From the IMG/VR virus record IMGVR_UViG_3300027772_000010, positions 1 to 64,000 of that record: 64,000 nt of DNA; one strand, written 5' to 3'. Below, piece by piece: positions 1-37,045 of the stretch; positions within the stretch are counted from its first letter, which is position 1; every line of letters begins with the position of its first letter. This DNA comes from a virus. Both the position numbers and the translations under genes were made by a program. The notes below the pieces were generated by a model. It did no database searches. It saw nothing but the letters and a program-made list of their open reading frames with translations, and had not been told where the DNA came from.

Positions 1-2406
1 ATTATATATTAAACCTCCATCTTCTTTTTTATGACTATAATCTATTCTTTTAGATGAAGTTTTTTCTCTTTTAAATTTTTCTTTTTCTGCACTACTTAAT
101 TCAGATGCAGTTTTAGGGGTATCACTATTTATTCTTTTAGAAGGTCTACAAGCAGGATAACCTTTTCTTTTCTCACCCTTTTGTCTACCACACTCTTTAC
201 CTGTTTTAACATCTACCCACTTCTCAGCAAACCATCTATCTAATCCTCCATGTTGGCCACCATTTTTCATTATAGGTATTTCTGTTACTTTATCTGTAGG
301 AAATATATAGTCTCCTGTATTTGGGTATAAAACTACTCCATTGGCTGCTACTGGAAAAGCCATATTATTAGTAGTTATATAATTACTATTGATAACTTTT
401 TTAGGTGTAAAATTATCTAAATTAGATATTAAATAACCATTATCGTCATTTATTTTTCCTCCTTGTTTAAAATCTCCTACCATAAAAGTATTAGGAGAAA
501 TAAGTTTAGATTGTGAAGGTCTATTTATTACATTTAATTTTGCATTTTTTAAATAATTATATGTTTTTGTAGGTATTTCTAAATTAGTCTGAGCATTAGC
601 TCCTATTTCACTACCAATATAATTATTTTCTAAATCAGATAACAACTCTTTAGTATTAGAATAATTATTAAATTCATGGGCAGCTCCTAGTATATTTGCT
701 ACTCCCATTCTATATGCTTTATCTATTGGAGAAAATTTATTTACCAAAGGCAAATTAGGTAAATTTTTAGCCAATAAAGCACTTGTTGTACTGTGTCTTA
801 ATGCATCTAAATAGCCATTACGTTCCCCAGTATTTAATTTATTATCAAATAACTCATCTTCATTTTTAGCTGTTTCATAAACTAAATTTAAATATTCACG
901 AGGTATTAATATGTTTTGAAGATTGTTATCTAAATTTTTTAAATTATTTTTAATGTTATTATATTCTTTTTCTATTGAATTTTTTTTAATTTTTAATCTT
1001 CCTCCATTTTGAAATTCTGCTGGAACAGCCATTGGTTGTCCAGGATATACTTTTGATGCATTTTGTTGTAAAATAATATCAGACCTTAATTTTGTTTTAG
1101 GGTCATAATAAATTTTATCTTCTAACTCAAAAGGATTAAACATTAGACTCTCTAATTCATCTAATAAAGGAGTTGCTTTTTTTAAATATTTACCTATAGT
1201 TGGATTAACATTTCTATCAATAAATTGATTTGCATATCTTGTAGGATCAAAATCAAATCTATCTGAATATTTTAAATATTCTCCTTTAGCATCTTTACCT
1301 TTTGTTATGTAATGTTTTCCCATAACAAAATCATCATAAGGATATAAATCAAATGCTGGGTTAACAGGGTCAGGTACTCCATCTTCATTAGGTACTCCCC
1401 AATCCCTTACAGCTTCATCAGATAAAAGAGTGTCAGGATAAAGTTTATTATAATCTCTTATTCTATATTTATTTGGAGCAGTTTGCTCAAATGCTCCTGT
1501 TTTAGAAGGCAACCCTAAATACATTCTAAGAGCATCTTGCTCTCTAGCAAGAGGTTCCATAGGTTCATTACTATAATCTTTTCCTTCTATACCAACTGCT
1601 GTTCTTAAAAGTTGGTTTAAAGGAGTAAAGTATCCTTCTTTAGTATCTAAGTTACCTAAGTTTTCTTTTAAAGATAAGGCTTTTTTTAATTTAGATAATG
1701 TGCTTTTTTTATCTTCTACCTTTCCTCCTCTTTGATAAGTAGGAGCTCCTTGGTTTTGTAGTGTTTTCTTTGTTGCTATTTTTGCCATTACCAAGGATGG
1801 TGTATGAGTTATGTGTGAAGCAGCTACTGGATTAAACGTGTTGTTTAAAAATTGTTTTGCTGTATTTGCTCCAATACTGCCTATTGCTCCAACCCCCAAA
1901 GGAGCTGCTAAAGCTAAGGCTGCATTTCCATATTCTCCTTGGTTAATTAATTCTGGAGTTTGAGCTAATCTTCCAGCCATTCCTCCTACTATATTAAATG
2001 GATTAATATAATCATCAAAGAAGTTGTCTTCATTTGAAAATCTATATTTACTTTTCATTCCCTCACCTATGTCATACAAATCTTTTGCATTTGCAGTTTC
2101 TAACATAGATTTTTGATTTAACTCTTCTAGCCTTCTTACATCAGCTATCCTTTTTTCTTTAGCCTTTTGGGATTCATTGGCTTTTTCTCTTAACAACCTG
2201 TTAACCATTTCCTTATCATCAGAACTGTCTAATTTTGGACTATTCTTATTATAAGTGTTATCCACAGCAACACGTTTGGTTGGAAGGTTAAAATATTGTT
2301 TTAATTTGCCTCCATCTTGGTATTCATTAATAGACAATTCCTCAGAGTAGTTATCCAACCACCCTGAAGAATTAGTTTTATTAAGTTTATTTTTACTTTT
2401 AGCCAT
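1..2406 (-). CDS. Modular virion cargo/ejection-type protein, truncated by the window edge and absent from the ORF track
   Basis: Translated by hand: ATG at 2406 overlaps the muzzle stop (TAATG) and the frame stays open to position 1 (MAKSKNKLNKTNSSGWLD...KKEDGGLIYN). Six xxxGG motifs. Sits directly after the muzzle gene, as crAss-like cargo genes do. Confidence 0.85.
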   Translation of the reverse strand, partial: MAKSKNKLNKTNSSGWLDNYSEELSINEYQDGGKLKQYFNLPTKRVAVDNTYNKNSPKLDSSDDKEMVNRLLREKANESQKAKEKRIADVRRLEELNQKSMLETANAKDLYDIGEGMKSKYRFSNEDNFFDDYINPFNIVGGMAGRLAQTPELINQGEYGNAALALAAPLGVGAIGSIGANTAKQFLNNTFNPVAASHITHTPSLVMAKIATKKTLQNQGAPTYQRGGKVEDKKSTLSKLKKALSLKENLGNLDTKEGYFTPLNQLLRTAVGIEGKDYSNEPMEPLAREQDALRMYLGLPSKTGAFEQTAPNKYRIRDYNKLYPDTLLSDEAVRDWGVPNEDGVPDPVNPAFDLYPYDDFVMGKHYITKGKDAKGEYLKYSDRFDFDPTRYANQFIDRNVNPTIGKYLKKATPLLDELESLMFNPFELEDKIYYDPKTKLRSDIILQQNASKVYPGQPMAVPAEFQNGGRLKIKKNSIEKEYNNIKNNLKNLDNNLQNILIPREYLNLVYETAKNEDELFDNKLNTGERNGYLDALRHSTTSALLAKNLPNLPLVNKFSPIDKAYRMGVANILGAAHEFNNYSNTKELLSDLENNYIGSEIGANAQTNLEIPTKTYNYLKNAKLNVINRPSQSKLISPNTFMVGDFKQGGKINDDNGYLISNLDNFTPKKVINSNYITTNNMAFPVAANGVVLYPNTGDYIFPTDKVTEIPIMKNGGQHGGLDRWFAEKWVDVKTGKECGRQKGEKRKGYPACRPSKRINSDTPKTASELSSAEKEKFKREKTSSKRIDYSHKKEDGGLIYN

Positions 2407-5400
2407 TAACGCATGGATATGTTGTAATTGAGGAGTGTAAATTTAAGTATAAATTTTAAGTTTTCTAATTCTTTATTATCTATATTAACTCTATAATTAA
2501 AATATCCATTTTCTAATCTATCAATTTTTGTCCAATCTTTTGATAATGAAACATTTGAGTTAGGATAAGGAAAAATATCTCCTACTAAAAAATTTAAATC
2601 ACTATCAACTACATAGTTCATTAAACTGTTACAAAATATAGTACCATTAATAATGTTATGTGGTTGGTTGTTTAATACAACATTCTCCATATAATCAGCA
2701 TTAATAGGAGTCTTTAACATTACTTCTCCACTATGTTGTCTATCAGTCCAAACTGAAACACTTGTAGGTGGTTCATCTACTAAAATAAGTTGGTTATTTA
2801 CATTCTTATAACAATCCATTTTAATTCCTACATTTTGTAATGTAGTATAAACTAAAGGATGATATGTAAATACTGCATCTACCATTGAAGGGTAATTAAC
2901 TCCATAGAATTTTCTATAAGAATTAAAGTTATCTTCATGTAAGTATAATTCATAATCTTCATTTTGAGTAAAGAATGTATCTCTATTTTGTAAATAAGCT
3001 ATTGGCTTATAAGAATGAAAAGAATAAAATGCTTTATCTTCTGGATAATAAGAAATAGTGTAATCATTATTTCTATCTGTAAATAATAATCTTTTATGTC
3101 TATAATCAAAACCTAAAGTAATATTTATATCAGCCAAAGGTAATAATGGACTATAAGAATTAAAATAATTGTTAAAAGCATTTTTAAAGAAACTATTCAT
3201 ACCATAAGTAGAAATAGCATCTAGTTTTCCTCCTGATAATAAATTTATACCTTGATTTTTTAAGTCAACAAAAAAGTATCCATAATTATTTTGAAAAGCA
3301 AATCTTTTATCTTGTAAACCCATATATCCTTCATTAGATATAAATAGATTTAAAGGTTGTGTACTTAATATATCACTTGTTCCAACATATATAGTATTAT
3401 TATTAGCTTGTAATTGAGATTCTAATACTTGGATTTTCCACATACTATCTGTAGTATGAGCATATATAATATTACTTTCTTGTAAAAGATTTGTAATATT
3501 TCCATATGCAGCAGGTACTGTTATAAAATTATTAGCTAAAAATTTAGAGAATCCACTTTCTGGTACAGCAGGATTATCTGCAGTAGAAACTATAATTCTA
3601 TTATCATATTGATTATCACATTCACAAGTTTTATAAGTTTCATCTATAGGTTTAAATATGTTAAACCTTAATCCATTTAATTCATTATAATCACTATTCA
3701 TAAGAATAATATTATCATGAAAGTTTCTATAAGAATCATCATACTCTACAAACATAGAATAATTAGCACAATTATCTCCATCTTGAGCACAAATAATTTG
3801 ATAAAAATAACTATTTAAAAAACAATCTTCTGCATATTCTCTTGTTTTATTAGAAAATAATTTATATTTTCCATTAGCTAATTTAGGGTAATAAATTTCA
3901 TTAAATGTAGGTCCTTCATATCTTAAATCTAAATTATAATCAGATTCCATTACAGAATTAATAAGAGTTACATTAGGTTTTTGCAATAAATATAATGAAA
4001 GTAAATAACCTTTATTGTTAGCTATAATATTTGTAATACTAAGAGTTGGATCTAATTTTGTCATCCATTTAGCTCCTATACTATCATTAATATAAGAATC
4101 TTCTAACATTCCTGTAACTCCTGTTCTAATAAAAGAAAATGTATTAATAAAAGAATCTCCATAAAATCCTGTAACACTTGTTTGATCAGCACAAGCTTTT
4201 AATCCTGTATCAATAAAAAACATATCTTGTATAGCTCCATATTGTCTAGGAAGATTATTTTTTAAAGAACCATAATAAATATAACCTTCATTACAACTAT
4301 CTAATATATTATTAGAAGTTGCATTATCTAAATAATTTTCAAAGAAATATTGTTCATCATTTCCTGAAGGACTTGTGGCAGTAAGAGAAACAGTTGAAGA
4401 TGATCCCCCAGTTAAAAAAGAAATTTGAAACCCTGCTAACCATTCTATTTGAGTAGTACTAACTACTGAAAACATCATACCATTAGTAAAAGGACTCCCA
4501 GGACTATTTGTTATAGTTAAAACTGATCCGACAGGAAATGCAGGATTAGAATAATTTACAAGAGTTCCAAAAGGAGCAACAGTTGCAGCAACTGTAAAAG
4601 TTTGGTTAATCCATGTCTCTGTTTTAAACCTTAAAGTTGCAGGTATAGGAAGAATTAGGGGGAGATTATAAAAATTTGAAGTTTTTTCTAATCTATTTGC
4701 TCCTGAATTCCATTTATATTTATCTCCTACATCAAATGGAGCAACTCCTCCTGTGTTAATAATAGTAAATTCAGTATTATTAGGATAATTTGTTAAAGCA
4801 GTTGGAAAAGTGGTTGGACTTGTTAAAAAATCTGATGAAATTGTTGCTGTAGTTAAAACTACAGGTACATCTAGTTCAAAGAAAATTTTATTAGTTGTTA
4901 ATGTAGTACAATTACATTTTTTAGCACTAGTATCTGAATTAAAAAAATCTCCATTATGATTAAAAGATAAATCTGTTCTTTTATTTAATAAAACAAAAAC
5001 TCCGCTCTCTCTATAAAAATTTACAAGAGAGTACTCTGCTCCTAAAATTTTATTTAAAATAACATTATCTTTTACATAAGAATAGTTTTCCGAACAAATA
5101 TTTTTAAAATTATAAAATAAAGATCTATTTTTATAACCATTTGTCCTATCTATAATTATATTATTAGATTGTACATATCCATAATTGTACATATTATATA
5201 TTTGAATAGCAGTTCTTCTTAGTCTACCATCTTTATCTAAAAAAACAGAGGTATCTAAAGCACTTGGATCTCCAGCACCTGATTTAAATCCATTTTGTCC
5301 ATCAATAGAATCTAAATAATATCCTGTTGTATTATATTGTTGTTCTATTTTAACATGGTTCATATTTATACCACCTTGAACTGCCATAGTATTTCCTCCA

Positions 5401-7400
5401 TAAAACATTAAAGCTTTTTCATAATGCTCACCATACCCACAATTTTTTACAAAGTCTGTAACAGTATTAGAAGTAGTTAAATCAGGATTATATTGATTTG
5501 AAAAATAATCCCATTTAGCTCCAGAGTTTATATTATGTTTTGGAAAAATATACTCTGTACCATATTTATCATTAGTAAAAGTTTCTACAAAAAATCCCTT
5601 AGCTTGAATAGATTTATTATAAGAATCTCTTCTTACATAAACTAATCTATAACCTGTTACTCTAACTCCTCCTGTTTCTTCTAGAGTAGGCATTTTAACA
5701 TTGTCTAGTTTTAATCCTAAAGGATAAATTTCTAAACTATCATATTTACTATCATATCTATTTTTATTTTCTTCAATAGCAAAATCATCTACTATATTGT
5801 TATGAAAAGGTTCAATAGTAGAATCTGGCATTTTAAATAATGTAATATGTTGGCCATATAATTTGTTACCAAGGACTTCGGTAGGATACATATAATTATT
5901 CTCATTATAAGTACTAGGATTAAATGGGCCTACATCACATCTAGGAATTATAGGGTATCTTTCTTCAGATTCAAAATAACCTAAGTATCCTTCAGAACGG
6001 ACAGTATTATTATTATTATTATTAATAGTACCTGAACAAAAATCTGTAGTACTTAAACTTGTAGCAAATGCATTATATGCAGTTCTCTTTGCTGTATTAA
6101 CTTCTTTCCAATAAACCCTATCATCTGTACAACATAATGCTGTATCATTAGTTTGTGGGTTTTCTTCATTCCAATCTGGAAAAGGAGTATATTTTTTATT
6201 AATTAAAGGAAATACAGCAGATTCTGACATATCCTCAAATTCTAAAACAATACCTAACATATAATTTTCATCTCTCATCCAAGATTTGTGATGAATAACA
6301 TGTTCTGGGTTTTTATACCCTTTAGTATTATTTATATTAATTTTTGCTGTTACATATTTAACAGTAATATCATTTGCATATTGTTGATAATCAACATTTC
6401 TTTTACCATTAACTCCTGCTAATAATAATCTATTATTATATATTAATCCACTTTTAGCGGATAAATAAAATGCTCTTTTAACTAAAATTTCTCTTATATC
6501 TACAGTTTCAGCAAAAACAGCATCTCCTTCATAAACTACAGTTAATTCAGAAGTTACTGGTTGTTTCTTTTTAAATAAAAAAGAAGTAGAAACTCCACCT
6601 ACAGTTTTTATAAATCCTACATTTATATATGGATATAAAACATCTAAGTTTTCAAAATTTAAAACTATACTTTTATTTAAAAGTTTAGGTTCATTACCAT
6701 CTATATATTCATAAGAAAAAATAAGATTATCTTCTACTAAAGGAATATTTTCATTTATAACATAATAATTTGTAGTATTACCATTGCTATCTTCATATTG
6801 AATAAATGGTCTATACATACCTGCTTCTATAGCATAAGCTGCATTATCTATAAAATTAACATTATTTAATCTAATACAAGTGTCTGCAACTTTAAACAAA
6901 TCTAATTCATCACAACTATTAATACAACAATCTGTATTAGGATCTTTTAAATACTCTGTTATATTAATATTTCTTACTCTATTTTTACCATCCCAAAATA
7001 CTATAACTATATCTTCACATTCTGTTTTAGCATAAGTAACAGATTCTACATAATTATTAAAGTCTAAACAAGGGGATTTATATATTGTAGTATAAGTATT
7101 TAAATTACCATCAAATACTCCAATTTCATTATTAGATAAAAATAAAACCCATTTATTTAATTGTTTTATTAAATTAGAATTTAATATTTTTCCAGGTAAT
7201 TTAATGTTTAAATCTAAATTAGAATACTCTGAAGTTAAAAAATTTTCATCACCTTCAGAAGACTCTTTCAATACATTTAATGCAGCTCTATAAGTATCTT
7301 TAGGTTGAGCATCTGGAGAAGCATCTTGATTTATACCTTTAGTAAAAGTATAATTAGCTATATCTTGCAAAGTCCTAGTTTTATTATTTTGCTCTGCCAT
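2406..7400 (-). CDS. Tail muzzle/stabilisation protein (crAss-like, P22 gp10-like)
   Basis: 1664 aa. N-terminal FTKGINQD motif, 'SWMRDENYMLGIV', C-terminal 'TISYYPEDKAFYSFHSY'. Follows the ring and IHF-like genes as in crAss-like genomes. Confidence 0.8.
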   Translation of the reverse strand: MAEQNNKTRTLQDIANYTFTKGINQDASPDAQPKDTYRAALNVLKESSEGDENFLTSEYSNLDLNIKLPGKILNSNLIKQLNKWVLFLSNNEIGVFDGNLNTYTTIYKSPCLDFNNYVESVTYAKTECEDIVIVFWDGKNRVRNINITEYLKDPNTDCCINSCDELDLFKVADTCIRLNNVNFIDNAAYAIEAGMYRPFIQYEDSNGNTTNYYVINENIPLVEDNLIFSYEYIDGNEPKLLNKSIVLNFENLDVLYPYINVGFIKTVGGVSTSFLFKKKQPVTSELTVVYEGDAVFAETVDIREILVKRAFYLSAKSGLIYNNRLLLAGVNGKRNVDYQQYANDITVKYVTAKININNTKGYKNPEHVIHHKSWMRDENYMLGIVLEFEDMSESAVFPLINKKYTPFPDWNEENPQTNDTALCCTDDRVYWKEVNTAKRTAYNAFATSLSTTDFCSGTINNNNNNTVRSEGYLGYFESEERYPIIPRCDVGPFNPSTYNENNYMYPTEVLGNKLYGQHITLFKMPDSTIEPFHNNIVDDFAIEENKNRYDSKYDSLEIYPLGLKLDNVKMPTLEETGGVRVTGYRLVYVRRDSYNKSIQAKGFFVETFTNDKYGTEYIFPKHNINSGAKWDYFSNQYNPDLTTSNTVTDFVKNCGYGEHYEKALMFYGGNTMAVQGGINMNHVKIEQQYNTTGYYLDSIDGQNGFKSGAGDPSALDTSVFLDKDGRLRRTAIQIYNMYNYGYVQSNNIIIDRTNGYKNRSLFYNFKNICSENYSYVKDNVILNKILGAEYSLVNFYRESGVFVLLNKRTDLSFNHNGDFFNSDTSAKKCNCTTLTTNKIFFELDVPVVLTTATISSDFLTSPTTFPTALTNYPNNTEFTIINTGGVAPFDVGDKYKWNSGANRLEKTSNFYNLPLILPIPATLRFKTETWINQTFTVAATVAPFGTLVNYSNPAFPVGSVLTITNSPGSPFTNGMMFSVVSTTQIEWLAGFQISFLTGGSSSTVSLTATSPSGNDEQYFFENYLDNATSNNILDSCNEGYIYYGSLKNNLPRQYGAIQDMFFIDTGLKACADQTSVTGFYGDSFINTFSFIRTGVTGMLEDSYINDSIGAKWMTKLDPTLSITNIIANNKGYLLSLYLLQKPNVTLINSVMESDYNLDLRYEGPTFNEIYYPKLANGKYKLFSNKTREYAEDCFLNSYFYQIICAQDGDNCANYSMFVEYDDSYRNFHDNIILMNSDYNELNGLRFNIFKPIDETYKTCECDNQYDNRIIVSTADNPAVPESGFSKFLANNFITVPAAYGNITNLLQESNIIYAHTTDSMWKIQVLESQLQANNNTIYVGTSDILSTQPLNLFISNEGYMGLQDKRFAFQNNYGYFFVDLKNQGINLLSGGKLDAISTYGMNSFFKNAFNNYFNSYSPLLPLADINITLGFDYRHKRLLFTDRNNDYTISYYPEDKAFYSFHSYKPIAYLQNRDTFFTQNEDYELYLHEDNFNSYRKFYGVNYPSMVDAVFTYHPLVYTTLQNVGIKMDCYKNVNNQLILVDEPPTSVSVWTDRQHSGEVMLKTPINADYMENVVLNNQPHNIINGTIFCNSLMNYVVDSDLNFLVGDIFPYPNSNVSLSKDWTKIDRLENGYFNYRVNIDNKELENLKFILKFTLLNYNISMR

Positions 7401-7402
7401 AA

Positions 7403-8353
7403 TTAATATTTTGTAAATGTATTATTTATTGTTTGAGATTTTCTTTGATCTAAGCCATGATAATGATTAGGTACTAAGAATTGATTAAGTGCTTCACCCA
7501 TAGCCCACATTTCATCAAATGTTTGAGTATTTAAATCTTCTCTAGCTTTAATTCTATATTTAATATATTCTCTTTGAGCCAGTTGAAAAAAGTTTAAATC
7601 AGCATTAGACTTACTTTTTCTATATTGAATATAAGCTAATTTTTCTTCTATTGCAGCTATTAAAGCATTAATAAAATTTTTAGTATTAGGAACTAATGGT
7701 AAATCACTTTCATCTACAGGTATAGATAAATATCCTAATATTATTTCAGCTTCTTTATAATCACATATTAAATATCCATTATCAATAGTAAAAGAATTTT
7801 GAGGTCTTAACTCTCTCTCAAAATCTACATTAGTATGTCTTAATAAAGATAATTCATTTTTTCTAGGCTGTAAAATAATCCACTCATTTCTATGTCTTTC
7901 AAACCAAGGGGTAAAATCTTGAACACTAGCAAATTGAAATGCTCTTGCTTGTTCTAAGTTTTGAATAAACAACCAACCATTAGTTTCTAAATAACTATTA
8001 TCACAAGAACAGTTATTTTCACATTTGCAATTTCTTCTATAAGTCCATGTGCAATCAGGATTATTAAAATCTTGTTTTATTAATTCTGTTAAAAAAAATT
8101 GCTCTCTTAAATGTTCTTTAGATTTAGCTAACACATATAAATTTTGTTTAAAACCACAAGGTAATTTTACTCTAAAATTTTTTACTTGTAATTTTTGTAC
8201 TTTTTCTTTATATTGTTTGGCTGTTCCTATTTCAAAATAAGCATCTATAATCCATTCAGTCATTAATTCTTCATTAAAATTAATTTCATTAGGAGCTATT
8301 TGTTTCCAGTTTTCAATAACTGTAGAAATGCTTGTAAATTGTAAATTATTCAT
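7403..8353 (-). CDS. Tail ring/tubular protein
   Basis: 316 aa with 'VKNFRVKLPC' and 'GYLSIPVDESDLPLVP' motifs; immediately upstream of the muzzle gene. Confidence 0.7.
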   Translation of the reverse strand: MNNLQFTSISTVIENWKQIAPNEINFNEELMTEWIIDAYFEIGTAKQYKEKVQKLQVKNFRVKLPCGFKQNLYVLAKSKEHLREQFFLTELIKQDFNNPDCTWTYRRNCKCENNCSCDNSYLETNGWLFIQNLEQARAFQFASVQDFTPWFERHRNEWIILQPRKNELSLLRHTNVDFERELRPQNSFTIDNGYLICDYKEAEIILGYLSIPVDESDLPLVPNTKNFINALIAAIEEKLAYIQYRKSKSNADLNFFQLAQREYIKYRIKAREDLNTQTFDEMWAMGEALNQFLVPNHYHGLDQRKSQTINNTFTKY

Positions 8354-9564: not shown

Positions 9565-10782
9565 TTAATTAAATATATGAGTAATTCTACTTATTTGCCC
9601 AAATTCTTTATGATGCAAAAATCCTTCAATTGCCTTAGGAACTCCTGTGTAACCATTTCTACTATGCCAGCTATCTGAAGCACTAGGACTTCTTAAACTT
9701 TCAATTGTAACCCCTATATGGTCTTTAGCAGTCTTATGGTGTACATGGTGAGTATAAATATATCTATGCTTACAAGTACTCCAATCTGTGCTTTCATGAG
9801 CCATTAATAATGGTAAGTCAGATTGTTTTGCACCATCACCATGTGTAGTTCCAATTAAATTGTTAAAATAACTATAATACTTTCTATGAGCTATTGAGCA
9901 ATCAAAAGTAATATTCTTACAATCTTTAAAATATGTTTTAATTACATCAGCTAAAAAGAACCCATTTGTATAATCATGATTTGATGGATTAAATACAAAG
10001 TGAACATTAGCTATAGGTAATAACATAGTTAATACATCTATATACAACTGCTTGGCTATCAAAAAATTATCATACCACATACCATCTGTATCTTGAGGAG
10101 TACCAGAAGTAGTCATTCTTTTTGGAGTATCAATATGTAAAATATCATTTCCTCCCACAAAAAGAATTTGATCTATATTAAATCCAGATGTTTTATCTAA
10201 AATTCCCTGGACTCCTTCTAAAACTCTTTTAACTGCTATTTGACTATTATAATCTTCTCCTGTCTCAAATGCTCTTGCAAGCTTACCCAGATGTATATCT
10301 GCAGGATCTATAACTAACAAGTGTCCTTCCTTAGAAGCAGTTCTTTTTATTTCAGGAAATACAGGAGAAAATTTTTGTAAATCAGAAACTAATTCATTAT
10401 AAAATTTATCTTCTTCTTGCTTTTTATATAAAGGATTAGTAAAAAACATAGATGCTGTATCATTTTTTAACCAGCCATGCTTTATGTCATTTACAGGAAC
10501 ACCTATGCTTAAACTTTCTTGGTAAATAGCATTTAATTCTTTAACTGTTTCTACCATTTCTAAAGGAACCCAAACATTAGTACCTTCAGTATTTTGTTTA
10601 GTATTTTTAACATTTCTTCCGTATGTACTTAATAAAAAATCAAGCTCTTCTGAAGTTAAGTTAAAACTATTATTGTTTAATTTTTTTAATAATCTTTTTT
10701 TATTGGGTCTTGCAATCTCTAAATAATTTTTATTATTACTTGTCCAATTTAAAAATTTAGTTACAACTTGTTGATTTACCAT
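9565..10782 (-). CDS. Calcineurin-like metallophosphoesterase
   Basis: Metal-binding motifs DIHLG, GNDILH, SNHD, HGD, HHVHH. Confidence 0.8.
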   Translation of the reverse strand: MVNQQVVTKFLNWTSNNKNYLEIARPNKKRLLKKLNNNSFNLTSEELDFLLSTYGRNVKNTKQNTEGTNVWVPLEMVETVKELNAIYQESLSIGVPVNDIKHGWLKNDTASMFFTNPLYKKQEEDKFYNELVSDLQKFSPVFPEIKRTASKEGHLLVIDPADIHLGKLARAFETGEDYNSQIAVKRVLEGVQGILDKTSGFNIDQILFVGGNDILHIDTPKRMTTSGTPQDTDGMWYDNFLIAKQLYIDVLTMLLPIANVHFVFNPSNHDYTNGFFLADVIKTYFKDCKNITFDCSIAHRKYYSYFNNLIGTTHGDGAKQSDLPLLMAHESTDWSTCKHRYIYTHHVHHKTAKDHIGVTIESLRSPSASDSWHSRNGYTGVPKAIEGFLHHKEFGQISRITHIFN

Positions 10783-27143: not shown

Positions 27144-28721
27144 TTATTTTCCTCTCAACGCTGCAGGGATTAATTCCCCACACTTAGTAACATCTTTTAC
27201 AAGGATACCAGCATCTTCCATTCTGTGTACAGTCCAGAAGTCACCAGCATGAGACATTAATGCTCCTTGACTATTTCCATAAGGGTTAGATAAACCACCT
27301 GTGTAACCATAAGCAACATCTCTTGAAGATTTCAAATAAGCAATGTTTTTACCAAAGCCATCACCTAAACCATAGTTTATAAATGTAAATCTTGAAGATT
27401 CTGCTGGATAACCATTCTCATCTAGGATAGTGTTGAAAGTTACGTCATCATAAGCTTTCATGTGCATAACTGTCAATGAACCACCAAATTTCAATTTGTA
27501 TTGAGTGTATGGAGTTTCAGTATAAGACAATCCTGTTGGACCACCTGGTACCAATGAAGCACCATCAGTTTTGATGAAATAATCTTTCATATCTTTGAAG
27601 AAACCTTGAGTTATTTGATTGATAGCCTCATCAAACAATCTTAGTCCTATTTCACCTGTCCACATTACAACATTACGTTGGTCATAAGCTACTCTACCAA
27701 AGAATATATCTTGCAAAAAGTCTTTAACTAGACCTATTGTGAAAGTGTTATAAAATTCTCTATAACCATCTTCTAGTATTTCTTGAAGACCTGGACCTTG
27801 ATTAACATAGTAACCTGTAGACTCATCAACTACTGTAGAACTACTTCTTTGATACATCAAGTGAAGTTCTTTTTCCATTTCAAATTCTTTGTTGAATTTG
27901 ATTTCAGCAACTGAAGTAATATACATATTACCTTTGTTTTTAGAATTCATAGCAGTTGCAATTCTTTTTTGGAATGCATCTGTAGACTCTCCTGCTTTTC
28001 TTCCTGCAAGAATCAACAAATCAGCTTCAGTTAAGTTACCATTCAATTTTCTTTGAGCAGCATCTCCTGTCATTTGATATTGTTTTCTGAATCTAGAAAG
28101 ACCAGAACGGAATTTAATTTTTCCAATTGAATCTACACTCATTGAACCACCTTTTACAGAGCCTTCAGAATAAGTAGAAGCAAGTTTCATAATTCTTGAT
28201 CCAATAACAAATAGATCAGTTGGTACAAATAATGTAGGATCATCTGTCATCAATTTAACTGTGTAAATTGTTGCAGAACCATCTTTTTGACCAGCAGCCA
28301 TAACACGCATGTTATATTTTTTGCTGTCAGTAAATACTAGAGTATCTCCTTCAACATAAGTACCTAGGTCAATTTTAATTTTAAATGGTCTTTGAGCAAT
28401 ACCTTTAGTAGTATTACCTGATTCAACATCCTCTACAATAAGAGATGGTCTATAACCTGATACCATGAATTCCCATTCTACTTTGTTTCCATCTACAGTA
28501 ATAGTATCTGCACCTTGAGCTAGTTCAAGCAAAGGAGCTGTACCATCAAATAAAGATTTCATTGAAGCTAGTTGGCCCATACCACCTAATGCCTCTGTAT
28601 CTGTTTTAATCAAACCTGCTTGGTAAAGATTATTTAGGTTGGTATAATTCATACCCCAGTTACGATCTCCCGTAAGCATTGGAGCTTTGATAATACCAAA
28701 TTTACTTTGTGATAATTTCAT
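27144..28721 (-). CDS. Major capsid protein (crAss-like)
   Basis: 525 aa; 'TYSEGSVKGG', 'GPGLQEILE', 'MWTGEIG', C-terminal 'GILVKDVTKCGEL'; follows scaffold and portal. Confidence 0.9.
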   Translation of the reverse strand: MKLSQSKFGIIKAPMLTGDRNWGMNYTNLNNLYQAGLIKTDTEALGGMGQLASMKSLFDGTAPLLELAQGADTITVDGNKVEWEFMVSGYRPSLIVEDVESGNTTKGIAQRPFKIKIDLGTYVEGDTLVFTDSKKYNMRVMAAGQKDGSATIYTVKLMTDDPTLFVPTDLFVIGSRIMKLASTYSEGSVKGGSMSVDSIGKIKFRSGLSRFRKQYQMTGDAAQRKLNGNLTEADLLILAGRKAGESTDAFQKRIATAMNSKNKGNMYITSVAEIKFNKEFEMEKELHLMYQRSSSTVVDESTGYYVNQGPGLQEILEDGYREFYNTFTIGLVKDFLQDIFFGRVAYDQRNVVMWTGEIGLRLFDEAINQITQGFFKDMKDYFIKTDGASLVPGGPTGLSYTETPYTQYKLKFGGSLTVMHMKAYDDVTFNTILDENGYPAESSRFTFINYGLGDGFGKNIAYLKSSRDVAYGYTGGLSNPYGNSQGALMSHAGDFWTVHRMEDAGILVKDVTKCGELIPAALRGK

Positions 28722-30032: not shown

Positions 30033-32525
30033 TTATAGGTTTTTAATTTCTTTTTCTAATTTTTTATTTTCTAATTCAATTTTTTTTAATTTCTCAACAT
30101 CTATTTCAGATTGTAAACTATTACTTTGTTTTAATTTTTCAAGTTCAAGTAAATCATTTTCTTTGTTTTCATTAATATCATTAAGCATTGCAAACCTAGA
30201 AGAACTTATTTCTGCAGCCTGTAAAGTAGTAGCATTTTTATCATCTGCCATTTGTTTTTGAAACTGCATTCTTTGTTGCTCTACTTGCATTTGCATTTGT
30301 TGCATTTGCATTTGTTGTTCTTGTTGTTGTTGAACTGCTTGCTCATCTCTCTTAATCTTATCTTCTTGAAGTCTATTTATAACATTTTTAATGTCTGTTG
30401 CATTTTCAGAAGTTAAAATTTCAGGAACTATTCTTAAGTCTCCACCTGAATTTTGTATAAGTGGTTGAATTAATCCTTTTAACTCATTGATTACCTGCGT
30501 ATCTTTAAGTGTATTTGTAATATATACTTTATAATTATAATTAGCAAAATCAACTAACTCTGTATTTAATGTAGCTACACTTAGGTCTGATAAAATATAA
30601 GAAGCTTTTAATGGGTTATCTTTATAAATTACTTTACAAATTTCTATAAAGTTTTCAGTAGTTCTTTCTTTTACATAATTATGCATATAGAACCACTTTT
30701 CTGTTTGATTAGAAGATTGTATAATATTTTGTTGATTATTACCTATAGACTCATAAGGAGATTGCATTCCTAATCTGTTAGGATTATAACTCATAGCTTG
30801 AGTCATTTTTCTCTCAATATAATCTAATAAGTTTATTTTTTGTGCAATGTCTTGAGTATGAGATAGATTTATACTTTTCCAATACTGAGGGTCAATCCCC
30901 ATACTTCTTAAATCCCCATCTTTTGAAGCACTAATCAAAGCTACTTTAAACTTCTTAATATATGTCATCCATTGTGTAGGAGTAAGGTCTTTAGGTATTT
31001 GCTCTTGTAAACCTAATAGTATATTACCTATATCAGTTTTCATAATCTCTATAATTTGATTTACAACCACATTATAAAGATACTGCCAAGGCTTTCCTAA
31101 ATCTGCAATAGATATTGGTGCAGAGTTTCTTGCAGAGTAAACTGTTCCTGTATAAGGTCCTCTTATTTGAAAAGGATTATCAATATCTCTATATTGATTA
31201 GGAATAGGTTCAATTTTTAAATAAATCTTAGGATTGGTAAAAATCTTATAACCATGCCAATATTCTGGTATCCATAGAATTTCTTGTTTAATATCTGTAG
31301 CTTTATTAAATACATAAGTCTCATCAGCAATACTCTTTTCTAAAGTATTGTTCTCATTTAATCTATAAATATATTTAATTTTTTTCAGAGTCTTCCATAC
31401 AATATGGGTTACTCTAAGTCTTCTAGTTTTATAATTATCATTATAATCATCTTGCCAAGGATCTGCCCAAGTAGGTGTATTTTCTGAATTTACACCATCC
31501 ATAAGAGCATTAGGAATTACTTCCCATACTTTAGAATCTGAAGGAGAATTTAAAGTAGATTCATATTTATCTAAAACTTCTCTTTCTTCTTCAGTAATGA
31601 TATTACCAAAATGTTGGTATATTTCATAAATACTTAAATATTCATCATAAGTGCACCAGTCAGACTCATCTAAGTAATCTATATCTTTAGACTTAGAGTA
31701 GTTAAAATATAATGGATTACAAGCTTTAATAATAGGCTTACCATTCCATTCTCCAGTCCAGTATACTTCTTCTCCTGTAATAATTACATCTTTCCAACCT
31801 TTATCAAATATACCTTTTAATCTATCTGTTCTTATGTGATATTGTAAAATTTCATCTGTTAGCTTTTCTTCAGGCAATTTAAAATGATTTGCCATGTATG
31901 TCTCTACCTCTACAGGAGTTGTTCTCTGTAAGGTTTGCTCTATTTGAGAATCTAGACTTTGCTGTAATTCTTCTAATTTTTTTAAATATTCAGGATCTAA
32001 TGTAGGGTCCATATTAGCCCTAGCCTCTTGAATTTTTTTAGCATTATCTGCTTTTATCTTTGTTAGTAATTGTTCTTTTACTATTTTTGAAGTATTTTCT
32101 ATTAACAACTCTTTGCGAGTTTTTTGTCTAACAGCCTCACTATTAGAACTAGTTGTAACTACTCTTAAGTTAAAAGGCCTTTTAATCTCTTCTCCCTCTA
32201 AATCATTTAACACATTTTGTAGTATAGGGAAATGAATATAGTCACTTTGGTTAAATTCCATTTCTGGAATATCAACTCCTAGTTCTGTAGAAATAACTCT
32301 ACCAGTATCTAAGTAACTATCAAAGTCCATTCTACCATTAAATAACTCATAGTTTATTTTGAACTTTTCTTTTCTTTCATTATAAAAATTATATTGGTTA
32401 GCAAAAAAATCCATTTTTGCTCTAGCCCATTCATAATTATTTGCTATTTTTTTATTATAGGAATATCTATCAGTGCCTACTTGAGACAAAAGTACACCAC
32501 TAACATAATTTTCATTTACTACCAT
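30033..32525 (-). CDS. Portal protein
   Basis: 830 aa; 'NYELFNG', 'LEGEEIKRPF', 'KPWQYLYN'; Q-rich C-terminal coiled-coil barrel; directly after TerL. Confidence 0.9.
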   Translation of the reverse strand: MVVNENYVSGVLLSQVGTDRYSYNKKIANNYEWARAKMDFFANQYNFYNERKEKFKINYELFNGRMDFDSYLDTGRVISTELGVDIPEMEFNQSDYIHFPILQNVLNDLEGEEIKRPFNLRVVTTSSNSEAVRQKTRKELLIENTSKIVKEQLLTKIKADNAKKIQEARANMDPTLDPEYLKKLEELQQSLDSQIEQTLQRTTPVEVETYMANHFKLPEEKLTDEILQYHIRTDRLKGIFDKGWKDVIITGEEVYWTGEWNGKPIIKACNPLYFNYSKSKDIDYLDESDWCTYDEYLSIYEIYQHFGNIITEEEREVLDKYESTLNSPSDSKVWEVIPNALMDGVNSENTPTWADPWQDDYNDNYKTRRLRVTHIVWKTLKKIKYIYRLNENNTLEKSIADETYVFNKATDIKQEILWIPEYWHGYKIFTNPKIYLKIEPIPNQYRDIDNPFQIRGPYTGTVYSARNSAPISIADLGKPWQYLYNVVVNQIIEIMKTDIGNILLGLQEQIPKDLTPTQWMTYIKKFKVALISASKDGDLRSMGIDPQYWKSINLSHTQDIAQKINLLDYIERKMTQAMSYNPNRLGMQSPYESIGNNQQNIIQSSNQTEKWFYMHNYVKERTTENFIEICKVIYKDNPLKASYILSDLSVATLNTELVDFANYNYKVYITNTLKDTQVINELKGLIQPLIQNSGGDLRIVPEILTSENATDIKNVINRLQEDKIKRDEQAVQQQQEQQMQMQQMQMQVEQQRMQFQKQMADDKNATTLQAAEISSSRFAMLNDINENKENDLLELEKLKQSNSLQSEIDVEKLKKIELENKKLEKEIKNL

Positions 32526-32560: not shown

Positions 32561-34867
32561 TTAATAATTTATTAAAAGTTTATTTTTGAGCCTGTTATTA
32601 TGCAATTCTTGATAAAAATCTAAACTAGTTTTTTTAACAATATTTTCTGTCTCCTTAATAACCAATTCTTTATCTTGTTCAATCCAAAGCATTAATAGTA
32701 AAAAAGCAGATACCCTGTCAAAGTTTCCCTTATCATTGTATTGTATAAGTTCTTCTAATAGCAAATCATCTTTAATTGTATCTAAGTTTCTGACAATTAT
32801 TTCTCTATTAGTTCCATCTATTAACTCTTCAACATATTTCTTTTTTTCTTCTAGCAACCATTGTTGGGACAATCTTAGAGCATATTGCTTTAGAGGATTT
32901 GTCATAGGTACTCCTACATCATATTTCATTGTAGGGTCTTTTACAGCCTTTTCAATAATTTGTTTAGGTGTGGGAGCAAGTATATGATAGTTGCCTGTAC
33001 GCATACAATAGTTTTTAAAGTCAATAATGTTATTCTCAAACATTACTTGTGCATTAAAATATTTAGCAGCTAAAACACATTGTAAATGAATATCTTCAGG
33101 CATATCATACCTTCCTACCCACCAAGCTACTAGCTCATTACCATTGCCATCTATTGTGTTATTAGATTTGTAAACATATATAGCAGCCAATGATGTACCA
33201 CCCCCCTCATCTTTAATAGGGTCATAAATTATTTTATATAAATTAGTAGGAATTAATCCAGCAGGAGGGTGTTCATAAAATTCCCAAGCACTTTGTAAGT
33301 TAGATTTTTGGTCATGAGGGAATCTATCAATAGGTCTCAAGTCTGTATCAGCCCTAAATTTTACTCCAAAAATATAATCTTTATCAGGAATTAAACTTCC
33401 AATTGTTCTTAAGTGTTTTTTGTATTGGTACTTATCATTATTTGCTTGAACTTCCCTAAGCATAGCAATAGGAAACTTATTACCTGTCCTAGATAAAAAC
33501 ATTTCTGAAGGCTTAATAGGCCTAGACATTATTAATTCATCATAAGCTACAGTATTGTTAGCTTTTTTAGCTTTCTCTCTTTCATAATACTCATACTCTA
33601 ATGCTTTTTCTATATTAGTATTTCCATTCTTATCTTTAAACATTTCATTGGTATAATAAGCTGGTAAGAAAAATCCTATTTTATTTCTACCCTCATAAAT
33701 ATCATTAAAACTTAAAAAATCATAAGCTTCAGGATCTCTAAATATAATCTCTGTTTCAATAACTTTGTCCACATCTCCTGATGTACCAATGTATAAAGAA
33801 GACCCAAACTTACCTGTTCCCAAGTCTTGTGTAGATCTATTAGCTCCATGTATTGTGAGCAAACTATCCTCCAAACCTACCTCTTCTATTACTATTACAG
33901 TATAACGACCTCCAACTGCAGCTTGCTTATTTTCTTTAAAAGTTTCATGTTTTAATAATGTTCCTGTACCTACAACTTTTGTAGTATTTCCAATTTTTTT
34001 CTCATAATGAAATCTATATGGATTTTTAGAATTACCTACTTTTAATGTTCCAGAACTTTGTCTAGAAAAAGGAGGAGGAAACATTTCTCTACCATTTGAG
34101 TATTCTCCTGGTAAATTATCAAGAGAATCTTTAAATTTATCTAGTAAATCTGAAGATTTAGAAGCAATAGGTGCACCACAAAATATCTCTACTTTATTTC
34201 TCTTAGCTAAAAAGTCTTCCATACTTTTTGCCCCATCTGTTAAATACTCATGCTCTAATATAGCTGATGCCATAAAAGATTTACCACCCCCCCTAGATCC
34301 AAACAAGAATAAATTAGTAGAGTAGTTATCATATAAAGGTATACCTAAAGGCTCTTTATGAGTAGAGTTTAAACATTCTAAAGGATCTATATATTCTTTT
34401 AATGTACCATTTTCTTTATAACAATCTTCTGTTAAAGTCTCTAGTAAATGTAAAGGAATATCAGCATTATTAGGATACTTTAATTTTTGTTCTTTTAGAT
34501 AAACTGTATAGTTAGAGGTATAATCAGGATCATCTTTAAACCCACTAAATCCTCTAGCTATAAACCATAAGTTCATTATAGTATAATTAATATCCCAAAG
34601 AAAAGGCTTACTTTTAATCCTTTGTTTTTTTACTGTAACCATCATTGTATGATAGTTAATAAAATAATATAGTTGAGGAGGAATAAATCTATATCTTATT
34701 CCTTGTTTAGTTTCTTCTTTTCCCCAATAACCATAAATTAATCTATTCAATTCTTCTGTCCAATATATTTCATAAGCAGAACTATTAGGATGTAAGTTAG
34801 GATGGGTTTTAATAAAATCTGAATTATCCTCTATTATAGGAAATAATAAATCTGTATTTATTGTCAT
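32561..34867 (-). CDS. terL: Terminase large subunit
   Basis: Walker A GSRGGGKS, Walker B IVIEEVG, 'GTSGD', nuclease motifs 'YDP', 'FENN', 'NFDRVSA'. Confidence 0.93.
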   Translation of the reverse strand: MTINTDLLFPIIEDNSDFIKTHPNLHPNSSAYEIYWTEELNRLIYGYWGKEETKQGIRYRFIPPQLYYFINYHTMMVTVKKQRIKSKPFLWDINYTIMNLWFIARGFSGFKDDPDYTSNYTVYLKEQKLKYPNNADIPLHLLETLTEDCYKENGTLKEYIDPLECLNSTHKEPLGIPLYDNYSTNLFLFGSRGGGKSFMASAILEHEYLTDGAKSMEDFLAKRNKVEIFCGAPIASKSSDLLDKFKDSLDNLPGEYSNGREMFPPPFSRQSSGTLKVGNSKNPYRFHYEKKIGNTTKVVGTGTLLKHETFKENKQAAVGGRYTVIVIEEVGLEDSLLTIHGANRSTQDLGTGKFGSSLYIGTSGDVDKVIETEIIFRDPEAYDFLSFNDIYEGRNKIGFFLPAYYTNEMFKDKNGNTNIEKALEYEYYEREKAKKANNTVAYDELIMSRPIKPSEMFLSRTGNKFPIAMLREVQANNDKYQYKKHLRTIGSLIPDKDYIFGVKFRADTDLRPIDRFPHDQKSNLQSAWEFYEHPPAGLIPTNLYKIIYDPIKDEGGGTSLAAIYVYKSNNTIDGNGNELVAWWVGRYDMPEDIHLQCVLAAKYFNAQVMFENNIIDFKNYCMRTGNYHILAPTPKQIIEKAVKDPTMKYDVGVPMTNPLKQYALRLSQQWLLEEKKKYVEELIDGTNREIIVRNLDTIKDDLLLEELIQYNDKGNFDRVSAFLLLMLWIEQDKELVIKETENIVKKTSLDFYQELHNNRLKNKLLINY

Positions 34868-36161: not shown

Positions 36162-36540
36162 CGTTTGTGTTTTTATTATTATATAAATATAAATTCTTTG
36201 TATTTACTCTTTCTCCAGTTTCTATATCTGTAAACTCTTTTACTATAATCTCCTCACTATCATAATAGTTTCTTTTTATTTCATCACCTGTTTTAATTTT
36301 TCTAGTTGCTACTAAGTAATGACCATTTACTTTGACATTAGGATCAAAAGAATGTTTTATATATTTTACAATAGGATCTATTATATGATAATTATCTTCT
36401 AGTTGTATTGTGTATTGGGTAGGTACTTTGGATTCTTCGCAACAAATAAATAAAATATTTTCTCCTACAAAAAAATCTTTATCAGAGATAACTATTTTTA
36501 ATTTGTTTTTCTGTATTATCTTAAAATTATTATTATTCAT
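36133..36540 (-). CDS. Divergent SET-domain protein
   Basis: 'KYIKHSFDPNV', 'LVATRKIKTGDEIKRNY'; NHS changed to KHS and no N-terminal GxG. Confidence 0.7.
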   Translation of the reverse strand: MNNNNFKIIQKNKLKIVISDKDFFVGENILFICCEESKVPTQYTIQLEDNYHIIDPIVKYIKHSFDPNVKVNGHYLVATRKIKTGDEIKRNYYDSEEIIVKEFTDIETGERVNTKNLYLYNNKNTNDGLLFDAEF

Positions 36541-37045
36541 GTATTAATCTATCTTTAAAAATTTCTGACAAACTATCATGATATAAAACTATATCTTCTC
36601 CTCTTAATAATTTCTTTAATTGCTTTTGTTCTAATGGCAATTCTAACAAAAGGTTTTTAAATTTATTATTTGCTGATCTAAGTTTTAATTCTTTTTTATC
36701 ATAAATAGGAGTTTCATTAAGATCTACTAAACAGTCTATTCTTGGAAAATGAACAATAGACCTCATTGATTTATCTAAAAAACAAATTGGAACTGTAGTG
36801 TTCATTAATAAGAAAAATCCTGAACTTGAACATTCCTCAATAGGATAAAGAACTATATCTTCATAATCCTCAATAGCTTTAGTTAAAGGATGTACAAAAC
36901 TTGTATATCCACCAGGGGTATTAATAAAAAAGTTAATTGGTAAATCATTATTATTTAAAAATGTTATGGCATCATTAATTGCTGATAACTCAAAATCATT
37001 GTTAAAAATATAAGTTAATCTTTTATTATCTACAATTAGTTCCAT
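36533..37045 (-). CDS. ClpP-like serine protease
   Basis: 'FFINTPGG', 'ECSSSG' (nucleophile Ser position), 'IVHFP' (His), 'GEDIVL'. Confidence 0.65.
   Translation of the reverse strand: MELIVDNKRLTYIFNNDFELSAINDAITFLNNNDLPINFFINTPGGYTSFVHPLTKAIEDYEDIVLYPIEECSSSGFFLLMNTTVPICFLDKSMRSIVHFPRIDCLVDLNETPIYDKKELKLRSANNKFKNLLLELPLEQKQLKKLLRGEDIVLYHDSLSEIFKDRLIHE

Follow-up and report, generated by a model that had tools for sequence, protein, structure and literature searches.

The locus lies at the start of a 64,000-nucleotide stretch (hereinafter the window) of a 98,313-bp contig, where three consecutive genes are encoded on the minus strand. The first (7403..8353) codes for the crassvirus tail ring protein R1 (PF24228, E 5.6e-27) and is followed by the gene for a muzzle-like virion protein of 1664 aa (2406..7400; phrog_15100, E 6e-26; crAss_MUZ_C, E 0.004; collinear BLASTP match to crAss001 gp44, E 6e-4), whose stop overlaps the start of the third gene. 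Within the window, this last gene (1..2406) codes for residues 1-802 of P0004, a protein of 1296 aa; our reading of the ORF agrees with the first-pass annotation, which has an open frame running from 2406 up to the window edge. The C-terminal 494 aa fall past the edge, and for that part we relied on the protein record of P0004 together with the locus L001, which is 85% identical. The earlier assignment of the gene to the cargo slot after the muzzle is borne out by the R1 and muzzle-like genes directly upstream, and the order ring R1, muzzle-like gene, cargo gene is kept in 10 relatives. The synteny thus places P0004 in the C1/gp45 slot, and it is probably the cargo (ejection) protein of a marine crAss-like phage, which would be packed in the particle and injected. 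Among cultured phages, searches for relatives of the whole protein matched only its DUF5872 piece.

P0004 is a mosaic 'polyvalent' protein with a beads-on-a-string layout, with five or more modules inside the window, all on the minus strand. It begins with a Lys-rich leader (residues 1-28; 2323..2406) containing the peptide ...SSGWLDNY, which recurs at the very C-terminus as ...KTGWLDQL. Junction 1 (YQDGGKLK, residues 29-36; 2299..2322), where homology to loci L007 and L008 starts (Q26), leads into Module 1 (residues 37-223; 1738..2298), in which a long helix precedes a hydrophobic segment rich in Gly/Ala. The TM-like stretch of this segment (residues 157-184; window positions 1855-1938; Kyte-Doolittle 1.75) is the sole strong hydrophobic stretch, and the segment may be membrane-active. 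At Junction 2 (YQRGGKVE, residues 224-231; 1714..1737) a 92%-identical block shared with L004 starts at Q224; this block has the lowest pLDDT in the full-length model. Module 2 (residues 232-464; 1015..1713) belongs to a family (49 representative clusters) usually followed by PG_binding_1 (E 2.6e-11 in the relative P0145) and is probably directed at the cell wall; the ESM Atlas returned only unnamed viral clusters for it (score 0.89). In comparison with L001 and L002, a cassette has been gained or lost exactly at Junction 3 (FQNGGRLK, residues 465-472; 991..1014), and both loci lack the helical Module 3 (residues 473-645; 472..990). Junction 4 (FKQGGKIN, residues 646-653; 448..471), predicted as coil with a pLDDT of about 32, precedes Module 4 (residues 654-712; 271..447), a small beta domain (pLDDT 70-86 for the predicted fold) homologous to an N-terminal module in the cargo proteins of other clades. 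Junction 5 (MKNGG, residues 713-717; 256..270) is followed in L004 by an unrelated module and in P0004 by Module 5, a DUF5872 domain (residues 718-793; 28..255; E 5e-14; present in 27/32 relatives), which is basic, has two conserved Cys, and is mostly disordered by prediction. Fold searches with the model of Module 4 plus DUF5872 gave no Foldseek match in the PDB at E <= 0.001 and a best Z of 3.4 in a wide VIA-align search, and no fold was assigned on this basis. Junction 6 (KEDGGLIY, residues 794-801; 4..27) closes the window part, and further modules, including a Gly-rich C-terminal region, lie past the edge.

The segments had previously been described as differing in character, and this stands for the Gly/Ala segment, the short beta module, and the Trp/Cys basic module (DUF5872), whereas the 'toxin-like' label comes down to a sub-threshold DUF6973 match of Module 3 (E 7e-5; 22.9 bits, where the cut-off is 27). 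Structure prediction places the motifs in coil between the modules; confidence in the AlphaFold models is low (mean pLDDT 40.5 for the full-length protein and 54.8), and the full-length one was used only for the positions of coil and local minima.

All six GG motifs of the first-pass annotation were recovered where it had placed them, namely YQDGGK (2305-2322), YQRGGK (1720-1737), FQNGGR (997-1014), FKQGGK (454-471), MKNGGQ (253-270), and KEDGGL (10-27). With the pattern [FYM]xxGG or [FYMW]xxGG, 5 occurrences were observed in the 802-aa part against 0.37 expected (maximum of 3 in 2000 shuffles), and the motif density of the cargo gene is 0.62 per 100 aa vs 0 to 0.45 across all other ORFs of the window; no small basic ORF bearing the motif was found within the window. 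The sixth motif, KEDGG, is without a hydrophobic residue at position -3, and we count it as a true junction because it is found only where another module comes after DUF5872. Taken together with the relatives, the junctions follow a consensus of about 10-12 residues, hydrophobic(-6)-x-x-[M/Y/F](-3)-[K/Q/A/E]-[E/D/N/Y]-G-G-[E/Q/Y/K]-[I/V/L/M], with amino-acid class constraint at -6, -3, -2, and +2. In 1393 unique GG contexts, hydrophobic residues peak at -3 (P5; 54%) and make up 15% at -2 (P4) vs 28% in the background. Positions to either side of the Gly-Gly contribute information to the logo, with degenerate flanks (0.3-0.8 bits per position) and stronger specificity on the N-terminal side, and the same consensus recurs across deeply diverged clades and unrelated modules. 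The pattern is real and, apparently, so far undescribed.

Comparison of the homologues, which had been proposed as a check on the annotation, places module gain and loss exactly at the GG motifs. Whole-module insertions and deletions in the relatives are exact at GG, and 56% of the endpoints of homology blocks lie within 5 aa of a GG, as against 14% by chance. The relatives combine DUF5872, DUF5754, YkuD, LysM, SET, glucosaminidase, ADP-ribosyltransferase, and PG_binding_1 domains in varying order, such that one chain may carry both periplasm-directed (LysM, YkuD, PG_binding) and cytoplasm-directed (SET, ADP-ribosyltransferase) modules. The motif comes and goes with fusion: DUF5872 as the last module ends in ...YNHKR and the stop, without a GG, and with a module following it reads ...HK[KR]xxxGG; likewise, stand-alone homologues of DUF5872 and Module 2 are without the motif, and embedded copies have one per boundary. 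Breakpoints falling exactly at the motif are also what a DNA-level recombination signal would leave, i.e., a GGNGGN hotspot that drives cassette exchange and to which the peptide is incidental. The Gly codons within the motif, however, are GGT in 52% and GGA in 31% of cases, the same usage as at other Gly codons (52% and 35%), and the flanking codons vary freely, with the constraint lying on amino-acid classes; we reject this highly improbable explanation, which the codon use largely disproves. The motif is conserved at the peptide level without conservation of the DNA, and since its consensus is shared across diverged clades, the peptide has therefore been under continuing selection.

The motif is also a feature of the protein termini. 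Both ends bear WLD in 27 proteins and WEI in 2, with 0 proteins of mixed type, i.e., the N- and C-terminal peptides co-vary. Of the motif-rich ORFs, 30% end 4-8 aa past a GG (9% expected; 4% in the remaining ORFs) and 54% carry a GG within their first 45 aa (11% of the remaining ORFs); pairs of junctions in tandem, 9 residues apart, are likewise frequent. These caps bear on the possibility that a single ancestral linker spread by duplication and shuffling and, having no partner, was kept merely as a tolerable inter-domain turn. The restriction of the motif to fused forms, its location in coil of low pLDDT, and the degeneracy of its flanks are all consistent with such a scar, yet it is an unlikely account of a consensus held across deeply diverged clades with no DNA conservation, and of caps that stand at termini, where a linker is needless, and co-vary between the two ends. 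The same caps favor a candidate role as a capsid-loading tag, against which the stand-alone homologues of two modules, DUF5872 and Module 2, are untagged. More generally, it is possible, and we propose it only tentatively, that the peptide at the junctions and caps serves as an address code. Its reader would be either a virion receptor, in the tail lumen or on the portal wing, by which the cargo is loaded and ordered, or a Gly-Gly-directed protease that releases it.

Under the polyprotein hypothesis, an idea raised in the first-pass annotation and extended here, the junctions would be sites for a maturation protease of phage or host origin. The enzyme would free the modules either within the capsid or once they are injected, and would also trim off the leader and tail. 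The invariant Gly-Gly with conserved -3 and -2 positions, the location of the site between modules only, the autonomy of the modules, which occur as separate genes elsewhere, and the leader-plus-junction arrangement at the N-terminus are all in keeping with this. The window also encodes one candidate protease, a product of 170 aa (36533..37045, minus strand), and its earlier identification as ClpP-like was confirmed by motifs, profile searches, and the ESM Atlas as that of a minimal ClpP homologue of the serine protease type (MEROPS S14). Its INTPGG, CSSSG, VHFP, and GED motifs are invariant in 14 homologues, its Ser and His align with the catalytic residues of ClpP in a profile search against the PDB (top 58 matches all ClpP; best E 3.6e-4), and 28/30 of its nearest ESM Atlas clusters carry CLP_protease. 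The ORF itself had no Pfam match at E <= 0.05, and its orthologue in the near-complete relative G001 scored 13 bits against the CLP_protease cut-off of 20.2, a weak match and the only one to this family in the five near-complete relatives. The gene is confined to one clade, that of the present phage, whereas motif-rich cargo genes are found in all clades; as its orthologue is missing in G002-G005 despite their motif-rich cargo genes, we rejected it as a universal processing enzyme. Zincin-like HExxH modules, which matched no Pfam peptidase family, occur in 27/155 relatives; being present in only 16/49 loci and missing from P0004, where no HExxH was found, they were likewise rejected as a universal in-cis protease. 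Searches for protease families covered the near-complete relatives (for the phage itself, 64 kb of its 98-kb genome were read): C48, C5, C39, S78, S77, S49, and MPTase-PolyVal (PF18818) gave no matches in five such genomes; for adenain-type C5, Ulp1-like C48, and C39, the profiles PF00770, PF02902, and PF03412 gave none at E <= 1 in four or five of them. Hence, no protease among those searched for travels with the motif. Moreover, the motif is not counter-selected in other virion proteins (4 observed vs 4.1 expected), and cuts at the GG sites that stand 4-8 residues before an ORF end, or between junctions with a spacing of 9 residues, would release tiny peptides only.

Known processing systems offer precedents for the polyprotein hypothesis, though the sites do not correspond. 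Adenovirus adenain (C5), ASFV pS273R (C63), and related clan CE/LXGG proteases cut virion precursors after Gly-Gly, at (M/I/L)-X-G-G or L-X-G-G sites with the hydrophobic residue at P4. P0004 is like these precursors in being a candidate virion-internal protein with several short sites ending in Gly-Gly. The earlier comparison with the adenovirus and ASFV sites is nevertheless not supported, in that the hydrophobic residue is here at P5, with P4 depleted, and C5/C48 homologues were not found in the near-complete relatives. Similarly, the proteases gp21 of T4 and gp175 of phiKZ process numerous head proteins, at sites ending in Glu; the T4 internal proteins bear a capsid-targeting sequence that is cut by gp21, and the head and inner-body proteins of phiKZ are cut by gp175. 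The short N-terminal leader of P0004, a candidate address, and its repeated short motifs recall these internal proteins. To our knowledge, however, systems of the T4/phiKZ type invariably come with a prohead protease of phage origin that has the assemblin fold, and the S77/S78 families were not found in the near-complete relatives.

A closer organizational parallel is provided by the polyvalent proteins, i.e., multidomain (2-15 domains), mosaic, and fast-shuffling proteins of phages and conjugative elements that are delivered with the DNA; embedded peptidases have been proposed to process the injected chains (Iyer, Burroughs, Anand, de Souza, and Aravind, 2017; PMC5512222). Like these, P0004 unites several unrelated domains in one chain that is mosaic among relatives, and relatives show the mixture of cell-wall, DNA-binding, and modifying domains (e.g., YkuD and LysM beside SET and ADP-ribosyltransferase). 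Unlike in many of them, no HExxH is present in P0004, and MPTase-PolyVal, a domain frequent but not obligatory in the polyvalent proteins, was not found in the five relatives. That study does not describe a conserved inter-domain junction peptide ('linker' occurs 0 times and 'Gly' 2 times in PMC5512222).

The most direct comparison is with the crAss001 cargo protein C1 (gp45), experimentally shown to be a virion protein (Bayfield et al., 2023; PMC10172136; PDB 7QOG, 7QOI, 7QOJ, 7QOL, 8CKB). Both genes directly follow the muzzle gene, and both proteins have a Lys-rich N-terminus (MAK.K...) and a Gly/Ala-rich TM-like segment near residues 140-180 (a TM helix is predicted at 136-158 in gp45). P0004, read here from its sequence alone, is longer and far more modular, and neither BLASTP (best E 0.017, to a relative), nor hhalign of the N-terminal profile against gp45 (probability 0.2%), nor a phmmer search of P0001 against PDB sequences recovered homology to gp45. 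The canonical [FYM]xxGG is not significantly enriched in gp45 (3 vs 1.4 expected), but a variant A-[F/Y/E]-G-G, a pattern chosen post hoc, occurs 5 times against 0.19 expected, and these occurrences bracket both of the segments resolved by cryo-EM; one of the gp45 junctions, GG-WLN, resembles the GG-WLD caps seen here. The resolved portal-bound segment of gp45 (425-552) runs through GG427-428 (NAF-GG-WLN), and the authors model one chain spanning the portal and tail (PMC10172136). This unbroken segment adds to the evidence against cleavage at the junctions, and in view of the foregoing we find the polyprotein hypothesis rather doubtful.

Instead, we favor the reading of the junction peptide as an uncut connector and cap, while judging its prospects of being correct to be about even. 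We do so because the five near-complete relatives yielded neither a GG-specific nor a classical prohead protease family, because the ClpP-like gene and the zincin-like modules are limited to one clade and 16/49 loci, respectively, because other virion proteins do not avoid the motif, and because the gp45 segment is continuous through GG427-428, although this concerns one junction of a degenerate form of the motif. Against it, the strict Gly-Gly with stronger specificity on its N-terminal side looks like a protease site, the leader, with a junction at its end, is reminiscent of the capsid-targeting sequences cleaved from T4 internal proteins, the same phage encodes a ClpP-like protease, and release by cleavage would be convenient where modules directed at the periplasm and cytoplasm share one chain. 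Further, the conserved flanks would be superfluous in a pure hinge. In an uncut connector, the Gly-Gly would form a flexible, sterically minimal hinge between independently folded modules, allowing them to be packed, threaded N to C through the portal and tail, and then refolded, while the conserved flanks and the caps at both ends would serve as a recognizable handle, plausibly by docking to components of the portal or tail lumen. Any module could then be inserted or deleted in frame between two connectors in the course of evolution.

In both guts and oceans, crassviruses rank with the most abundant phages, and a peptide present at every joint and at both ends gives a testable handle on how several megadaltons of cargo are loaded and ejected. 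Were the address code to hold, any module placed between two tags would be an injectable effector, making this a general plug-and-play cargo system of crassviruses; such an address or release code would also explain the free swapping of cell-wall enzymes, SET methyltransferases, ADP-ribosyltransferases, and DNA-binding modules, and would open a route to loading chosen proteins into phage particles. Even if it is only a hinge, the peptide marks module boundaries for the annotation of thousands of opaque giant phage proteins. Finally, junctions of the form [V]QKGGQ resemble the C-terminus of the actinobacterial Pup protein, a resemblance that we take to be due to chance.

Window positions 1–2406 (minus strand) form a single open frame that continues past the left edge; its full-length product is P0004, a 1296-aa mosaic protein encoded on a 98,313-bp contig and one residue apart from the window translation. 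The first-pass annotation had described an open frame with repeated Gly-Gly motifs here; this observation is borne out, and all six motifs lie exactly at the stated positions. Five of the six fit the pattern [FYM]-x-x-G-G, against 0.37 expected from composition and a maximum of three in 2000 shuffles. Among all ORFs of the window, motif density is highest in this gene (0.62 per 100 aa; 0.12 in the muzzle-like gene and zero in most ORFs).

The minus-strand block to which the gene belongs runs in the order TerL (32561–34867), portal (30033–32525), major capsid protein (27144–28721) and tail genes, and closes with a crassvirus ring protein R1 (7403–8353; PF24228, E 5.6e-27) and a 1664-aa muzzle-like protein (2406–7400; phrog_15100, E 6e-26; crAss_MUZ_C, E 0.004; collinear match to the crAss001 muzzle gp44, E 6e-4), all on the minus strand. 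A DNA repair exonuclease (9565–10782, minus strand; phrog_704, E 1.8e-66) lies within the tail/structural block, an unusual site for a nucleic-acid enzyme. The focal gene starts on the base with which the muzzle-like gene ends, and its position is the slot of the crAss001 cargo protein C1 (gp45). Ten related loci share an invariant order of ring, muzzle, focal-gene counterpart, a second motif-rich gene and then motif-free genes, so that the motif is restricted to the two or three genes that follow the muzzle. The second of these, in the C2 slot, codes for another mosaic protein; it has 11–16 junction motifs, and its N-terminus, MKELLLQIAGVK..., is conserved (L001:13351-16275, L003:14311-17250, L009:12708-15974).

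Across 79 related loci and 120 database proteins, for which counts are not phylogenetically independent, we found mosaic proteins of 800–2100 aa with 5–30 motif copies each, and the homology blocks among them start and stop at motifs. For instance, P0004 residues 224–471 (92% identity to L004) are limited by YQRGG and FQNGG, residues 645–718 by FKQGG and MKNGG, and the DUF5872 block (residues 713–798) by MKNGG and KEDGG. Overall, 56% of 612 internal block endpoints fall within five residues of a GG, as against 14% for random positions, a figure that is partly built in because alignments naturally end on conserved residues. Cleaner support comes from exact junction cases: the focal ...PAEFQNGG/RLKIKK...[module]...GDFKQGG/KINDDNGY corresponds to ...PPEFAKGG/KVNDNNGY in L001 and L002, and a shared ...IPIMKNGG is followed by DUF5872 in the window and by unrelated sequence in L004. 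The expectation central to the first-pass annotation, module gain and loss exactly at Gly-Gly, holds.

Selection acts on the peptide, since codon use at the motif glycines matches that at other glycines; that the motif is instead a DNA recombination signal appears to us very improbable. In a logo built from 1393 unique GG contexts, position -6 is hydrophobic in 43%, -3 is M, Y or F (0.77 bit), -2 is K, Q, A or E (hydrophobic residues fall to 15% there, versus a 28% background), and -1 is E, D, N or Y; the first residue after G-G is E, Q, Y or K, and the second I, V, L or M (hydrophobic in 48%). The spacing of successive GGs peaks at 9 residues, reflecting tandem double junctions. Both AlphaFold models, of low confidence overall, place the motifs in predicted coil at local confidence minima just outside folded elements, in keeping with the boundary placement first proposed for them. 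That the peptide is a purely passive linker we hold to be unlikely.

The motif is a property of the joint and not of the domains. Proteins in which DUF5872 (residues 718–785; Pfam, E 5e-14) comes last terminate in ...YNHKR* with no GG, and where another module follows, ...HK[KR]xxxGG is present; neither flank occurs in the stand-alone, 86-aa DUF5872 protein of the cyanophage P-SCSP2. In this T7-like Prochlorococcus phage the gene for the basic protein lies between those for the scaffold and the major capsid protein (L081:1495-1755), which suggests that stand-alone DUF5872 is a small protein, internal to the virion or associated with DNA, common to very different phages. Module 2 (residues 232–464; 49 representative clusters in an exhaustive search) is an independent second instance of this behavior: its stand-alone homologues (~445 aa or 305–334 aa) lack the motif, and embedded copies have one per unit boundary. 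This family is without annotation and has conserved EQDALRLYLGLPQ, GRHTV.KGKD and IYGR.YY motifs (P0138, P0139 and P0148 stand-alone; P0140-P0158 embedded). An NWGV.DYS subdomain usually precedes the unit and a PG_binding_1 domain usually follows it (E 2.6e-11 in P0145; 28 bits in P0148), which makes the cell wall the probable target of module 2, and the family is a candidate for a new domain through which phage ejection proteins act on the cell wall. Elsewhere in the protein, the sole strong hydrophobic stretch (residues 157–184) is comparable to a predicted TM helix of gp45, residues 511–609 give a sub-threshold DUF6973 match (Pfam, E 7e-5, below cut-off), the beta module (668–711) has a predicted fold with pLDDT 70–86, and the DUF5872 module is 28% Lys+Arg and mostly predicted to be disordered. 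Beyond the window edge, P0004 goes on through tandem junctions and a stretch with 26% Gly to the tail ...KTGWLDQL*.

Motif copies also cap the protein ends. Thirty percent of motif-rich ORFs stop 4–8 residues past a GG (9% expected from GG density; 4% of other ORFs), with conserved tails GG-[EQ]-[IV]-E-[FY]-[IL]-D* or GG-WLDxL*, and 54% have a GG in their first 45 residues, versus 11% of other ORFs. The same W-L-D or W-E-I peptide recurs at the N-terminal leader and C-terminal tail (WLD/WLD in 27 proteins, WEI/WEI in 2, mixed in 0, counts that are not independent, since close relatives are frequent among these proteins). P0004 itself has GWLDNY within residues 1–28 (window 2323–2406) and GWLDQL within 1280–1296. 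Internal W-L-D/W-E-I copies always come after a junction GG. Across relatives WLD goes with WLD and WEI with WEI/WQI, and distant ones echo the pairing (MTKWEIIED... at the start, ...SSWQIIEY* at the end). The reading we favor, at about an even chance, is that the junction peptide is an uncut connector and cap: a flexible hinge with recognizable flanks would join modules and close the protein ends, and could possibly double as a docking handle.

The alternative that the junctions form a cleavage code is, in our assessment, doubtful. A candidate protease is encoded at 36533–37045 (minus strand): the 170-aa product is a serine protease of minimal ClpP-like type, in which the motifs INTPGG, CSSSG, VHFP and GED are invariant. 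As the first-pass annotation had supposed, it is a ClpP homologue: its Ser and His line up with the catalytic residues of ClpP, all of the top 58 matches in a profile search against PDB are ClpP, and an ESM Atlas search agrees. An orthologue is present in G001 alone, the closest of the complete relatives, and is absent from four other near-complete genomes (G002-G005), whose cargo genes are just as rich in motifs. The gene lies among small ORFs upstream of TerL, not between the portal and capsid genes, and is limited to this clade among the phages examined. With the relatives' genomes as targets and known families as queries, C48, C39, C5, S78, S77, S49 and MPTase-PolyVal (Pfam) had no match in the near-complete relatives. 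Counted by protein, HExxH modules with a typical zincin context are present in 27 of 155; counted by locus, in only 16 of 49. The focal protein has none. These optional modules (e.g., VAAHETGH, IAVHELSH; L003:10001-14296, L008:10001-15052, L012:9971-14062 and others) match no Pfam peptidase family. Other virion proteins show no depletion of the motif, and its hydrophobic residue falls at P5, unlike adenain and LXGG sites, where it is at P4. An unrecognized or host protease may nonetheless cut at the junctions.

The crAss001 gp45 structure also bears on cleavage. Of its published resolved segments, 214–245 and 425–552 (PMC10172136), the first starts four residues past GG209-210, and the second runs unbroken across GG427-428, stopping ten residues short of GG562-563. 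In that paper a single chain is modeled through the portal, which argues against cutting, and neither cleavage nor a protease is ever mentioned (PMC10172136). The canonical motif register is not significant in gp45; related A-[FYE]-G-G peptides number 5 against 0.19 expected, for a pattern picked after the fact. GG-WLN opens its portal-bound domain, comparable to the GWLD peptides at the P0004 ends.

Phage proteins of the injected, multidomain 'polyvalent' type have been described before (PMC5512222), as have the cargo proteins of crassviruses (PMC10172136); neither paper describes the conserved junction peptide, and we found no description of it in literature on DUF5872, crassvirus Gly-Gly, crAss001 gp45 or Crassvirales polyproteins. 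To these the window adds a ClpP-like gene that does not co-distribute with the motif, a protease survey with negative outcome, the P5 register, the finding that other virion proteins do not avoid the motif, and module 2 as a second family found both stand-alone and fused.

Adjoining the ClpP-like gene, a small ORF (37055–37384, minus strand) has a DUF1573/Ig-like domain (E 6e-6, just above cut-off). A small free-standing SET-domain ORF lies at 36133–36540 (minus strand; PF00856, 23.2 bits versus a cut-off of 22.4); in relatives SET is a module within cargo proteins, so the same domain occurs either as a separate gene or as a cargo module.
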